The notes: a model not told the origin generated them from the sequence alone. 56,642 nucleotides of DNA from an uncultured Chitinophagaceae bacterium (GCA_964384415.1 CAYLMV010000002.1:24389-81030); one strand, 5' to 3'. Numbered from the stretch's first letter, positions 19,374 through 56,642 are shown. Numbers and translations are program-made.

Positions 19374-19533
19374 AATTAAAAGTTAAAAGTGCAAAAGGTA
19401 AAGGTAGAGTGAAGAGTTCAAAGTGGCCACTCAATTCTGTAATCGTGCAGACGCTCTCCATAACGCGGCAGGCGTGCTTCCCACTTTGAACTTTGGACTT
19501 TAACTTTGCCTTTTGCATTTTGAATTTTGAATT
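19374..19533. repeat. 53-bp heptamer-periodic inverted repeat around a 54-nt core
   Basis: Arm 19374-19426 matches the reverse complement of 19481-19533 at 43/53 with no gaps. Confidence 0.9.
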
Positions 19534-31184: not shown

Positions 31185-31226
31185 CTTTCCATCGTCCCTC
31201 ATCCATCTTCCCTCTTCCATCATCCC
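31185..31226. repeat. Heptamer tandem array TCnTCC(A/C)
   Basis: ctttcca tcgtccc tcatcca tcttccc tcttcca tcatccc, 6 nt after the sulfurtransferase stop. Confidence 0.75.
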
Positions 31227-52792: not shown

Positions 52793-54636
52793 TTGTTCAA
52801 CTCCTTTTCCGTTGAGACGATAACGTTGCTTGCCATGCCGTAGATTTTGCTCTTCTCTTCCTGATCGGCGCTTGAAGGGGCAAACCGCGCGTACTCGCAC
52901 GCCTCCAGGCACTCCTTCAGCTGCGAGGCAACCTTCTGCGAAACCTTGGTGCCCTCCAACTGCTTCATGACGCTGTCGATCGATAGCGCGGAACGATCGA
53001 TGGCCAGTTTGTCGGAAACGTATGCCCACAATGCACGGGATATCTCTGCATAGAAGGCCTCCGCATTCTGCGATGTAAGAAGCGAGCGCGCATCCTTAAG
53101 TCTCTTCGTGGCTATTTTCATCGCCTTACGCGAGCGGAACGACGTCGCATCCGACAAGTCTTTTTGCGTTTTCTGCCGATAGGCCACGAGGCCGACGAAT
53201 GCCAGGAGCGGGACAAGCGACAGAATCGCCGCTGTCGATGCCGGGAGCGTATCATTCCCTTTTTTGCGAAATGCGCTGCTGTTCGTTTTGATGAACCGAA
53301 TATCCTCGCTGAGGAGTTTTACATCCTCCTTCGAAAGACCCGAACCGGCTGCGGGCGCTTCAGCGTTCCCTTTCTCAACCGTCAGGTCGAACGCGCCGGA
53401 GTGGAGTGTAACGTACTTCCCCGACGACGGATCGAAATACGAGAATTCGAGCGGGGTGATCTTCTTCTGACCCGGATACCTCGGCACGAGCAGCCATTCG
53501 AACGATTTGGACCCGTTCACGATGTTCCCGCTCCGGTCGATTGTTTCGTTCACCTTCGGATCGTATTTCTCAAATTCTGCGGGTATTTCGACATTCGGAG
53601 CTTCGAGGATCTTGATATTCCCCGTTCCTCCGACGGTCGCTTTCAGCGACAACGGCTCGTTGGTTTTGACATGATTGCTGCTCAGGGTTGCGTTCAGATT
53701 GAATTTGCCCACCGCCCCTTTGAACGAAACCGGGACATTGTTCTTCGGCAGCGGCAGCACCGAGACTTTCAGCGGAGGACTCTTTACGGCAACATTCGAC
53801 GTGGTGACATTGTTGAAAAACGGGTCGTTAAAGAATTGGTCGAAAAAGTCGTTGGAACGTTTGCGGTTCTCCATCTGGACCTGGCACACGATCTCGAGCG
53901 GACTGATTTCGAGAGACCCCGCCTGGGTCGGAAAAAGCGCGACCTTCTTGAGCACGGCAACTCTGTATTGTTTTCCATTTACTGTCTCGACGGTGAACGC
54001 TAAGTGTTGCGCTGTCACGAGTTCTTCACCCCAGAAACCGGTCATCGATGGGAGTTTATCAAACGTGATATTCGCAATGCTCACTCTGGTATAGAGTTTG
54101 AAAGTCGTCGTGATTTGCTCGCCAAGGTAGACACGCGCCCGGTCAACCGTCGCCCGCAGGAAGAGATTGTCGCCCAGCTGTACATCCTTGGTGTTGGATT
54201 GGGCGGCCGCAGCCGGCTGCTTTGGGTTTGCCGAGCTTTTAACGACGGTAATTTCGAGCGGCTGGGATGAGTACCGTTTGTTATCGACCTCAATTGTGGC
54301 AGCGCCAATGGTGAACTTTCCCGCCTCCCGCGGCTGCAAGGCGTACGAGTACGTGACGGACGACGAGACGGAGCCGTTGATGATCTGCATGCTCGACGAC
54401 TCGTTGGGTCCGGAGATAATCATGAATTTGCTGAGGTCGGGGAGCGCCAGGTTACGTCCTCCGTTCATTCCTCCGCCATTGAGAGTGAGTTGGAGTACAA
54501 ACTGCTCGCCGAGAGCGACAGTATTCCTATCCAAAGCCGCGCTGAACGACGGATCCGCCGCCTTCAATTGCCCCGGCGAGAAGACTATGCCAAGAAGGAA
54601 AGCAATCTTTACTATGTTAAACCAGGCTCGTATCAC
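52789..54636 (-). CDS. batD: BatD family protein
   Basis: Signal peptide, repeated Ig-like BatD domains, GAVGKF, FSYFDP, C-terminal TM and CE.ARFAP. Confidence 0.9.
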   Translation of the reverse strand: MIRAWFNIVKIAFLLGIVFSPGQLKAADPSFSAALDRNTVALGEQFVLQLTLNGGGMNGGRNLALPDLSKFMIISGPNESSSMQIINGSVSSSVTYSYALQPREAGKFTIGAATIEVDNKRYSSQPLEITVVKSSANPKQPAAAAQSNTKDVQLGDNLFLRATVDRARVYLGEQITTTFKLYTRVSIANITFDKLPSMTGFWGEELVTAQHLAFTVETVNGKQYRVAVLKKVALFPTQAGSLEISPLEIVCQVQMENRKRSNDFFDQFFNDPFFNNVTTSNVAVKSPPLKVSVLPLPKNNVPVSFKGAVGKFNLNATLSSNHVKTNEPLSLKATVGGTGNIKILEAPNVEIPAEFEKYDPKVNETIDRSGNIVNGSKSFEWLLVPRYPGQKKITPLEFSYFDPSSGKYVTLHSGAFDLTVEKGNAEAPAAGSGLSKEDVKLLSEDIRFIKTNSSAFRKKGNDTLPASTAAILSLVPLLAFVGLVAYRQKTQKDLSDATSFRSRKAMKIATKRLKDARSLLTSQNAEAFYAEISRALWAYVSDKLAIDRSALSIDSVMKQLEGTKVSQKVASQLKECLEACEYARFAPSSADQEEKSKIYGMASNVIVSTEKELNK

Positions 54637-54651
54637 GTGCGGCTAGTACTC

Positions 54652-55365
54652 CTACCAATCTTTCTCGACGTTGGTCTTGACAGCAGCTTTTCGGCGAAGT
54701 TTCTTCTGGACATTCTTCTCGTCATTCTTCAACGCATCGAGAATCCGTTGTGCATCAGCCCTGGACATCTGTTTTTCCTGCTGCTGTTGCTGCCGTTGTT
54801 GGTCCTGCTTATTCTGCTGCTGCTTTTGCTGATCTTGTTGTTTCTGCTGCTGATCCTGTTTCTGCTTGTCCTTTTGATTCTTCTGCTGATTCTTGTCGTT
54901 CTTGTCCTGCTTCTGCTGCTGCTTTTGTTGCTGCTGCTGTTTCAACATTTGTTCGGCGTAAGCGAGATTGTACTTCGTTTCTTCGTCGTCCGGGTTGAGC
55001 TTCAACGACCGTTTATATTCGTCGATGCCTTCCTGGTATTCCTTCTTCTCCAACTGGGCATTGCCGATATTGTGGTGAAGCTGAGCGCTGATTTTCGGGT
55101 CTGCCGTCTTCGTTAATGCATTCTGGTAGTTCTGGGCGGCTTCATCGTACCTCTGTTGTTTATAGAGCGCGTCGCCGAGATCAAAGTATCCCTGCATGAT
55201 TTGATTGTCTTTTTCCAGAGACTTCCGATACTCGGCCTCGGCATCGGCAAATTTCTGATCCTTGTAGAGGTTGTTGCCATCGCCGATATGCGATCGGACA
55301 GACTGGGCCATAAGCGCCGGTGCGATGTAGAGTATCAGGATCCCGTATCTGAAGAGTGACTTCAT
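54652..55365 (-). CDS. batC: BatC-like TPR protein
   Basis: GN.LYK...AEAEYRK, YK.SLKLNP.DEETKYNLAYA, Gln/Lys-rich linker, A.RIL.AL..DEK, EKDW end. Confidence 0.88.
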   Translation of the reverse strand: MKSLFRYGILILYIAPALMAQSVRSHIGDGNNLYKDQKFADAEAEYRKSLEKDNQIMQGYFDLGDALYKQQRYDEAAQNYQNALTKTADPKISAQLHHNIGNAQLEKKEYQEGIDEYKRSLKLNPDDEETKYNLAYAEQMLKQQQQQKQQQKQDKNDKNQQKNQKDKQKQDQQQKQQDQQKQQQNKQDQQRQQQQQEKQMSRADAQRILDALKNDEKNVQKKLRRKAAVKTNVEKDW

Positions 55366-55388
55366 TGTTGCTGGCAGAGAGTATTAAG

Positions 55389-55598
55389 TTTTGCGTTTTA
55401 CGTTCTACGTCTTACGTCTTACGTCTTACGTCTTACGTTTTACGTTTTACGTCTTTCATTTTACATTTTCCATCTTCCATTTTCCATCTTCCCTTGCTTT
55501 GTCCGTGATCCTCGACCTTAACCTTAATCTCGACCTGTTGATTGTTAATTGTTGATTGCTGATTGTCTGCTGTTGAATGTTTACTGTTTACTGCTCAT
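55389..55598. repeat. Composite tandem array: 15 heptamers + 7 hexamers + 9 heptamers
   Basis: 55389-55493 T(T/C)TTACG drifting to T(T/C)TTCCA; 55494-55535 TnnACC/ATC hexamers; 55536-55598 TG(T/C)TnAn heptamers running into the batB stop. Confidence 0.92.
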
Positions 55599-56634
55599 TG
55601 ATCACCCTGAACGGATTGATCTTGTCCAGCCAGGAAATCTTCTTATCCGACAAGAGGACTTCGATCAGCAAGAGCAGCAATCCCAATGCAACAAAGTATT
55701 GAAATTGATCTTCAAAATCAGTGAATTGCTTTGTGCCAAATTCGCTTTTTTGAAGCGCATTGACCTCTTTGTAGATCGCGTCCAATTCGTCCTGGGTGTT
55801 GCTGGCATGAAAATACTTCCCGTTCCCGAGCGCAGCAATTTTTTCGAGGGTTCCTTCGTCCAATTTCGTCAGGACGACGTTTCCCGAGCGATCCCGTTTG
55901 AAATCGACTTGGCGGCCGTTTGCATCGTAGATAGGGATGGGTGCACCCTCGGGCGAGCCCATGCCGATCGTGTAAATGAGGACTCCCTTCTTTGCGGCAT
56001 CCTCCGACTGGGCGACTGCGTCTCCCTCGTTGTTCTCTCCGTCCGTAATGATGACCAGCACCTTCTTAGTCCGATCATTCCAGTTGAACGATTTCGCGGC
56101 CTGCTCAACGGCAGAACCAATCGCCGTTCCAGGCGTCGGCACGGACTCGACATCGACGGCGTCCAGAAAGATATCGGCCGCGCTATAGTCGGTCGTCAGG
56201 GGAAACTGCACATAGCTTTCTCCGGAAAAGACAATCAGCCCAATTCTGTCTCCACCGAGACGATCGATCAGGTTTCCAATTTCGTATTTTGCCTTCGCCA
56301 GCCGATTCGGCTTCACGTCTTCGGCCTTCATGGATAAGGAGACATCGAGGGCAATAAAGATGTCGACGCCCTCCTGCTTCACCTCTTCCAGCCTCATGCC
56401 GATCTGGGGATTTGCGAGAGCGATGACGACGGATGAAATCGCAGCCATCATCAAAAGCATTTTCACCCATCGTTTCGCGCCGCTGGAATCCGAGGCAATC
56501 CGGCTGAACATGGCCGCCGAGGAGAATTTCTCCCTCGCCGTTTTCCGTTTTCTCGTCACATACCAGAACAACACGGCCATCAGCGGAACGAGTCCGAGCC
56601 AGTACAAATATTCAGGATGTGCGAAGCGGATCAT
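55588..56634 (-). CDS. batB: BatB-like VWA domain membrane protein
   Basis: RFAHPEYL, LANPQIG, DVSLSM.AED MIDAS, PLTTDY, ITDGE, TIGMGS.EG.PIP, FQYF. Confidence 0.9.
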   Translation of the reverse strand: MIRFAHPEYLYWLGLVPLMAVLFWYVTRKRKTAREKFSSAAMFSRIASDSSGAKRWVKMLLMMAAISSVVIALANPQIGMRLEEVKQEGVDIFIALDVSLSMKAEDVKPNRLAKAKYEIGNLIDRLGGDRIGLIVFSGESYVQFPLTTDYSAADIFLDAVDVESVPTPGTAIGSAVEQAAKSFNWNDRTKKVLVIITDGENNEGDAVAQSEDAAKKGVLIYTIGMGSPEGAPIPIYDANGRQVDFKRDRSGNVVLTKLDEGTLEKIAALGNGKYFHASNTQDELDAIYKEVNALQKSEFGTKQFTDFEDQFQYFVALGLLLLLIEVLLSDKKISWLDKINPFRVINEQ

Positions 56635-56642
56635 AGGGAGAA
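56631..56642 (-). CDS. Probable last codons of the upstream gene (batA expected)
   Basis: TGA overlapping the batB ATG (ATGA); only 12 nt visible, so identity is inferred from operon order. Confidence 0.3.
   Translation of the reverse strand, partial: FSL

Follow-up and report, generated by a model that had tools for sequence, protein, structure and literature searches.

Although heptamer repeats between genes have been on record for decades, neither a mechanism nor a function has been attached to them. In heterocystous cyanobacteria, such heptamers form the short tandemly repeated repetitive (STRR) families, with STRR1-3 having the units CCCCAGT, TTGGTCA, and CAACAGT, respectively. According to Mrazek (2007), as cited in PMC4679880, heptamers are the commonest of the long simple repeats of prokaryotes, whose units are 5-11 nt long; in that account and in the study of Xanthomonas and Nostoc by Rehm et al. 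(2015, PMC4692102), no other class of long repeat is as abundant as heptamers, the distribution is scattered and lineage-specific, and polymerase slippage is proposed as the source. TAACTGA repeats (MacGregor 2015, PMC4679880) lie flush upstream of start codons in Beggiatoaceae and are also found in cyanobacteria and some Bacteroidetes. In Gramella, Elizabethkingia, and Microcystis, they form part of long assemblages together with other heptamers, and in Flexibacter litoralis a reverse-orientation set stands directly after a stop codon; the arrays differ by indels in 7-nt steps between close strains and are missing from the orthologous spacers of close relatives (PMC4679880).

In this work, we analyzed a tandem array between batB and batC in an uncultured Ignavibacteria-like lineage of Bacteroidota. 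The array lies in a 56,642-nt stretch of DNA, which in its whole length is referred to as the window. The arrays of this genome share the three properties of long simple repeats given above, whereas the surveyed repeats, as portrayed in those sources, are near perfect and come without stop- or start-codon anchoring, paired hairpin forms, or word order. With STRR sequences they share tandem heptamers at many intergenic sites and several word families per genome, but no exact tandem copy of the three STRR1-3 units is present in this genome, which belongs to another phylum. With TAACTGA repeats they share intergenic tandem heptamers, TnACTGn units flush with start codons (11/13 genome-wide), mixed words, 7-nt indels, and absence from the matching spacers of near relatives; unlike those repeats, they are far more degenerate, predominantly in reverse orientation and anchored at stop codons, richer in words, and consistent in word order. 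Exact TAACTGA occurs here as only nine tandem pairs genome-wide and none at batB-batC, where the block next to the stop codon is a degenerate relative in reverse orientation. The TAACTGA study (PMC4679880) did not cover Ignavibacteria-like Bacteroidota MAGs and described no link to PF05635; it did point out that XisH (PF08814) is distributed similarly to the TAACTGA repeats, and XisH gave no match in the 31 genomes, the control genomes being silent too.

The repeats are therefore of a kind already known from heptamer long simple repeats, STRR, and TAACTGA. What is new is the lineage, the dominance of the stop-anchored reverse orientation, the one-way word order, an operon junction for which the ancestral state is known and two strain alleles are documented, and an association with PF05635 in this genome. 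We regard the tract as probably a local stack of four words drawn from a genome-wide system of degenerate short-period arrays in transcribed spacers between same-direction genes. The system is built mostly of 7-nt units, with some units of 8 nt and a few of 6 nt. If the tract is only a neutral spacer, it is an ordinary case of a known repeat class in a new lineage.

Architecture of the batB-batC tract

The operon is encoded on the minus strand of the window. batB (55588..56634) specifies a 348-aa protein with a BatA N-terminal domain and a von Willebrand A domain (ORF call; Pfam PF07584, PF00092, and PF13519), and batC (54652..55365) a 237-aa protein with TPR repeats (ORF call and Pfam); batD, confirmed by Pfam, follows batC after 15 nt. 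The batB/batC spacer, from the batB stop codon to the batC ATG, is 222 nt long (55366-55587). On the coding strand, 9 heptamers, 7 hexamers, and 15 heptamers tile positions 55389-55598 exactly. A first-pass annotation had described this 15/7/9 tiling of 210 nt, and we confirmed it on the sequence, by lag matching, and with TRF, which finds the same arrays at scores of 95-110. At lag 7, the match fraction amounts to 0.70 for block 1 and 0.85 for block 3, values attained by 0/5000 shuffles even with each shuffle given its best lag between 3 and 11. Periodicity is less marked in the hexamers, whose lag-6 match of 0.56 is reached by 4/5000 shuffles. As in long simple repeats, the units are arranged head to tail, fall within 5-11 nt, and run longer than expected by chance.

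Block 1 (55536..55598, minus strand) begins within the end of batB and consists of nine degenerate heptamers of the CAGT/CAAT word, [A/T]CA[G/A]TNA on the mRNA strand. Its units, from 55598 to 55536, are ATGAGCA, GTAAACA, GTAAACA, TTCAACA, GCAGACA, ATCAGCA, ATCAACA, ATTAACA, and ATCAACA. The first two overlap the codons AAT GAG CAG TAA; the final batB codons are thus made of repeat units and the stop codon TAA (55588-55590) lies inside the block, in agreement with the earlier annotation. Block 2 (55494..55535, minus strand) has seven hexamers of the GTCGAG/ATTAAG/GTTAAG type, which read GGTCGA, GATTAA, GGTTAA, GGTCGA, GGATCA, CGGACA, and AAGCAA from 55535 to 55494, with a clear likeness in the first four or five only. 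The 15 heptamers of block 3 (55493-55389) pass from GGGAAGA/TGGAAAA through TGTAAAA and TGAAAGA to CGTAAAA/CGTAAGA. Divided by word, all on the minus strand, block 3a (55465..55493) has four GGAAGAT/GGAAAAT units, block 3b (55388..55450) has nine GTAAAAC/GTAAGAC units and contains the only exact 4-copy GTAAGAC run of the genome, and the transitional units GTAAAAT and GAAAGAC (55451..55464) join the two words by single-base steps. The stepwise heptamer drift that had been remarked on at first pass (GGAAGAT to GTAAAAT to GTAAAAC) is real and follows the same order at other loci. The segment at 55409-55450 (minus strand) is variable in length, with six units here and three in other strains. Between block 3b and the batC ATG there is a 22-nt non-repeat leader (55366..55387, minus strand) without the Shine-Dalgarno core, which about 35% of the genes in the genome possess.

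The spacer RNA is 46% A and folds no better than shuffled sequence (z = +1.18). An Rfam scan of 54600-56642 at E ≤ 1 returned only a chance miRNA match, and a scan of the spacer for sigma-70 promoters and intrinsic terminators gave no signal above shuffled sequence. The most economical reading is that the spacer is likely an untranslated, unstructured stretch of the operon mRNA.

Several other identities were considered. Small ORFs in the 222-nt spacer were ruled out, as each of the three sense frames is interrupted by stops; on the antisense strand, ORFs of 50-54 aa derive from repeat units. The idea of a stop-codon "safety net" was rejected for batB-batC because frame 2 of the spacer runs for 155 nt without a stop. 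The units, 6-7 nt and contiguous, are not those of a CRISPR array, which has repeats of 24-48 nt with unique spacers. Nor does the tract resemble a MITE or an insertion sequence, as it has no inverted termini and only the unit words are common between loci; at hairpin-forming loci elsewhere in the genome, the loop sequences are unrelated to each other. batB-batC has no transposase, target duplication, or terminal inverted repeat that would betray a depositing element.

batB-batC is not the sole expanded junction of the operon, because batA-batB also holds a composite array. That junction starts in the last 8 nt of the window (56635-56642) and extends for about 220 nt (G000:C2:81023-81250, G000 being this genome). 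The array is a run of N in this genome copy and was read in a contig from another assembly (L146:1277-1503), where it has the same word order as other composites: four CAGT units flush with the TAG stop, five GGACTNN/GAACCAA units, and 12-13 ACGTARA units. A second such contig (L147) differs from L146 in length by one unit (7 nt). The first-pass annotation had the remaining bat genes overlapping or 15 nt apart, which holds for batC-batD and does not hold for batA-batB.

It should also be mentioned that the 3' half of batC contains a CTG-rich repeat of period 3, 12, and 36 (window 54769-54941), and that BatC has 238 aa in contigs L146 and L147 versus 237 aa in the window.

Junction history and strain alleles

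We compared the batB-batC junction in 27 relatives, 15 outside the genus and 12 within it. Outside the genus, the genes overlap in 8/15 genomes, through ATGA (-4) in seven of them and over 10 nt in the eighth. In four others the genes stand 2, 5, 16, and 68 nt apart, and in G014 they are separated by 143 nt of non-array sequence; G021 and G025, in which batB appears longer, were excluded from the gap counts. Within the genus, all 12 genomes carry a spacer, which measures 45-188 nt and in most cases is a clear heptamer array, usually with ACAATGA/ACAATCA units including the stop codon followed by GGACTNN or GAACCAA units; no clear array is seen in G012 and G011. The overlaps outside the genus, set against the spacers within it, indicate that the spacer was gained in the genus ancestor and later turned over fast. 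An insertion at batB-batC, as first proposed, is borne out by the ATGA overlap or 2-16 nt gap of most outside-genus relatives. Judged from this comparison, the ancestral state is an ATGA overlap, with the two genes presumably once translationally coupled, and the insertion would probably have abolished that coupling.

The closest species (G003), with a BatB of 92% identity, has hexamers, GGAAAT, GAACCAA, and GTAAAAC in this order and in copy numbers other than those of the window. A non-repeat GC-rich segment replaces block 1 there, and a homologous hexamer block (GCTGAG, GTTGAG, TTTGAG, GTTAAG, ACTAAG) stands at the same place.

Two other arrays in the window were followed only in those same-genus genomes whose orthologous spacer was recovered. 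The hairpin-type pair of TTCAAAN arrays at 19374-19533 is kept with substitutions in G003 and is ordinary sequence in G012; the TTCCATC array at 31185-31226 is likewise kept with substitutions in G003 and is ordinary sequence in G004, G006, and G001.

The words themselves also differ among species. Four consecutive GKAARAY units were sought in 30 relatives, including the 12 same-genus genomes, and gave 17 matches in the genome studied here, 0 in 29 relatives, and 1 in G025. Amplification of the block 3 word is confined to this species, where so young a word occupies at least seven separate loci, always on the mRNA strand. The same-genus genome G012 has zero CAGT/CAAT matches, yet it is rich in GACCTTG, GAGTTCG, and AGAATAC, with about 61 arrays per Mb in a 313-kb sample. 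The words look like a "library" that is amplified differently by species, which calls for some means of seeding words at new junctions.

Eight contigs with identical BatB were collected from ENA, JGI, and Logan assemblies. One of them (L148) is 100% identical to the window genome and was not counted as independent because it probably has the same source. The independent JGI contig L150 carries the same 222-nt allele with 1 mismatch in 1.5 kb, and the Logan contig L152 matches the first 162 nt of this allele before it ends inside the array. An ENA contig (L146) and a JGI contig (L147) carry a 201-nt allele, which is otherwise the same and lacks exactly three units (21 nt) within the run of two GTAAAAC and four GTAAGAC units. 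In each compared stretch of 1.4-2.6 kb, 2-4 SNPs set these two contigs apart from the window, with indels only in repeat tracts, and the flanks of the two alleles are about 99.8% identical. Because the alleles recur in independent assemblies, we conclude that the tract is real and that it varies by whole units in its most uniform part; such whole-unit variation between close strains is a further property of long simple repeats.

The recurrence of the alleles also bears on the possibility that the tract is an assembly artefact, i.e., a collapsed or chimeric repeat. Four contigs from other samples terminate inside the batB-batC array, several contigs of this genome end in arrays, and the neighbouring batA-batB array is a run of N in this genome copy, owing to either an assembly gap or withheld bases; nevertheless, the 222-nt allele is found in L150 and in its first 162 nt in L152, the 201-nt allele is found in two independent assemblies, and the units are degenerate enough to give unique k-mers, so this possibility is close to refuted. 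The copy-number polymorphism among near-identical strains would be expected of a phase-variable contingency switch, in which gain or loss of units toggles batC and the genes downstream. Such a switch is nonetheless very improbable: the units are located neither within an ORF nor between promoter elements, the promoter scan being at the level of shuffled sequence, the arrays are degenerate and not perfect, and about 200 loci of every functional kind have them. The locus amounts to a natural experiment at a conserved operon junction, with the ancestral ATGA overlap known, arrays replaced genus-wide, and alleles exactly three units apart.

Vocabulary, placement, and order of arrays genome-wide

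The assembly comprises 4.6 Mb in 440 contigs with 52% G+C. A lag-match scan of the whole genome yielded 138 segments of period 7, 94 of period 14, and 32 of period 8, with 0-1 segments at periods 4, 5, 6, 9-13, and 15; TRF gave 188, 141, and 65 rows at periods 7, 14, and 21, respectively. Merging leaves about 170-240 arrays, with periods of 7, 14, 21, or 8. Their vocabulary is small and includes CAGT/CAAT, GGAAGAT, GTAAAAC (= ACGTAAA), GAACCAA, GGACTNN, AAGAGAT, AAGAATT, and TTCAAAN, as well as the octamers GATTGCAA and TGGAATGN. The unit families of the tract, which the first-pass annotation had suggested seeking across the genome, occur at many other loci, and every batB-batC word is found again elsewhere. 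At least three consecutive GKAARAY units are present at 14 loci versus 0 in a reversed-sequence control, and at least four consecutive NCARTNN units at 71 loci versus 4; the hexamer word is rare, with a handful of loci. Several contigs begin or end in long near-perfect arrays (C147:1-83, C161:1-150, C52:1-109), for example of the octamer ACAGGATA in 10 copies. Since arrays fragment the assembly, their true number and length are underestimated.

The placement of the arrays was examined against 3480 genes predicted by our own caller from ORFs and codon scores, a set that contains some errors. Where both flanking genes were called, these point in the same direction at 111 arrays, converge at 17, and diverge at 6, compared with about 99, 11, and 24 expected from intergenic length (chi-square p = 1.4e-4), indicating that arrays avoid promoter-only regions. 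Sense-strand CART arrays are located at -14 to +7 nt from the upstream stop codon in 29/35 cases, many of them including the stop, and antisense CART arrays (TnACTGn) at -4 to +14 nt from the downstream start codon in 11/13 cases. Both orientations occur together in 11 spacers, in all of which the sense arm is 5' and whose folds have a median z of -4.2, whereas the 24 spacers with the sense arm alone show no excess of folding over shuffled sequence. Within the CART word, A occupies position 7 in 88% of units and position 6 is nearly random, a conservation profile that is partly circular because the core positions had been used to select the arrays.

In composite spacers, 19/19 ordered word pairs run in the same direction, with CAGT/CAAT or AAGAGAN at the stop, then GGAARAK, and then GRACYNN or ACGTNNA towards the start. 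All arrays of the GKAARAY word between same-direction genes are on the mRNA strand. The order from GGAARAT to GTAARAC, with the same single-step intermediates as in block 3, is also found on the mRNA strand at C6:35140 and C64:17096, and C198:3603 has GTAARAT/GTAARAC intermediates on the mRNA strand.

Strict strand polarity and stop- or start-codon anchoring would suit a post-transcriptional platform, on which a putative word-specific protein bound to mRNA or DNA sets batC-batE translation or mRNA stability, with copy number as the tuning variable. Candidate proteins would be a PF05635 paralog or S1-/Csp-like proteins, as proposed for TAACTGA repeats. The within-unit conservation at particular positions, with its partly circular profile (the 88% A at CART position 7), the same placement rule for TAACTGA repeats in Beggiatoaceae (PMC4679880), and the altered reporter output upon deletion of heptamer repeats in Nostoc (preprint 10.1101/2022.06.06.494920) are consistent with this explanation. 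Arrays at other loci, however, are kept only in the closest species and are absent from other same-genus orthologous spacers, and the blocks at batB-batC turn over between species; we consider a platform unlikely.

Another explanation is a purely local microsatellite, that is, a single motif evolving in place by slippage and point mutation without import, with shared words reflecting mutational or compositional bias. Such an origin would account for the whole-unit length polymorphism in the most uniform block, for the GGAARAT and GTAARAC words being bridged by single-base transitional units, and for the 14/21-nt higher-order periodicity typical of satellite dynamics, and it would agree with the polymerase slippage that Mrazek, as cited in PMC4679880, proposed for heptamers. 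It has to contend with four unrelated words in one spacer, one of them a hexamer, with the same, partly species-specific, words at 7-50 loci in fixed polarity and order, with GKAARAY confined to this species and yet present at seven or more loci, and with the strong tie of arrays to PF05635 genes. For these reasons, a local origin of the whole tract is distinctly improbable. The earlier claim that the tract is not simple slippage is upheld by the polar words shared among 7-50 loci, while the one change that can be seen between strains is a three-unit slippage in the uniform block.

In a stack of words from a genome-wide system, words would reach new junctions by a mechanism acting in trans, such as recombination between arrays, template switching, or the spread of PF05635 cassettes, which have arms of the same words. 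After arrival, an array may grow, shrink, and drift like a microsatellite by slipped-strand mispairing together with 14/21-nt higher-order duplications.

Heptamer words were also seen within coding sequences. The commonest strand variant of the T9SS C-terminal sorting domain, (V)ISYQL(A/P)VNS (16/146 sorting domains), has ATCAGTTATCAGTTA..., an in-frame CAGT heptamer array, as its coding sequence in nearly every case; sites in this genome include C20:9935, C110:6196, C110:6889, C242:1327, and C61:15469/21759/23058. This motif raises the question of an exchange between coding and non-coding copies. Counts of CARTNNN x4 in the relatives are inflated and unreliable because the coding motif matches the pattern, making up 12/20 sampled matches in G013 and about 10 in the genome studied here. 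In addition, three paralogous secreted proteins have in-frame CAAT/CAGT arrays in one loop (C45:29614-29648, C66:5742-5776, and C94:4609-4636), which encode N/Q/S/T-rich inserts of differing lengths.

PF05635 genes and their possible part in the spread of words

Classical ORF-bearing intervening sequences (IVS) sit in the helices of 23S rRNA. PF05635, the family of the "23S rRNA intervening-sequence protein", is a homologue of the DGR accessory protein Avd (PMC10053308). This genome has 11 PF05635 genes, all of them away from batB-batC, and 9/11 have a repeat array within 220 nt, for which the chance expectation is about 2% per gene. Complementary arms flank the genes at C153 (CAGT word), C23 (AAGAATT), C15, and C147 (octamer). 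At C350, GTTGAC/GTTAAG-type hexamers were noticed by eye, unscored, at the flanks of a PF05635 pseudogene, where automatic arm detection found none. The genes are co-oriented with both neighbours in 9/9 cases having both called, and the paralogs, 26-46% identical to one another, each have a different word. Unlike IVS, these cassettes occupy mRNA spacers, where inverted array arms bracket the gene, with a stop codon immediately ahead and the next start codon immediately behind.

A same-order relative (G021) has a complete PF05635 cassette filling its batA-batB junction (L022:2480-3040; G021:C57, minus strand). The cassette runs from the stop codon through a heptamer arm, the PF05635 ORF, and the complementary arm to the ATG, and its arms (GCAGTCA GCGATCA ... 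/ GCTGAAT GCTAATC ...) directly abut these two codons.

Array density among genomes is suggestive and points the same way as the association between arrays and PF05635. Three PF05635-poor genomes (0-1 genes) had 0 arrays in the 422 kb sampled and five PF05635-rich genomes had 10-61 arrays per Mb sampled; G001 (14 PF05635 genes) and G016 (10) had 0 arrays in their samples. None of the papers searched connects PF05635 with heptamer arrays.

The batB-batC tract itself lacks both a PF05635 ORF and a complementary arm; its four blocks are all rich in A on the same strand. Of its words, CAGT/CAAT matches an arm word of the PF05635 cassettes and the hexamer, by eye, is similar to one; a search of the fragmented 440-contig assembly for cassettes with GGAARAT or GTAARAC arms was negative. 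Because the ORF, the complementary arm, and a cassette with either of these arm words are all missing, a cassette origin of the tract can only be inferred. Arrays of GTAARAC nearly always occur alone and in sense orientation, a habit that fits an origin from cassette arms poorly. The first-pass annotation had spoken of repeat-depositing elements; no marks of such an element were seen at the locus, and the only candidate is the PF05635 cassette found elsewhere in the genome and in the batA-batB junction of the relative.

Tentatively, and with more doubt than belief, we propose that PF05635 paralogs, as Avd-like four-helix-bundle proteins, may write, spread, or read cognate words, each paralog lying between arms of its own word, with ORF-less hairpins and solo or stacked arrays being their derivatives or targets. 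If true, this would make PF05635 part of a junction-targeting element system common to many phyla, and batB-batC a multi-word record of repeated visits. Stop- and start-anchored polarity, fixed word order, species-specific amplification, and the PF05635 association are constraints on any mechanism.

As a further observation on these genes, at least 7/11 of them are preceded, within a few bases of the start codon, by 5-7 consecutive G (e.g., C153:2290, C52:16310, C79:1255, C147:490, and C9:43685), a conserved Shine-Dalgarno-like element of unusual strength.
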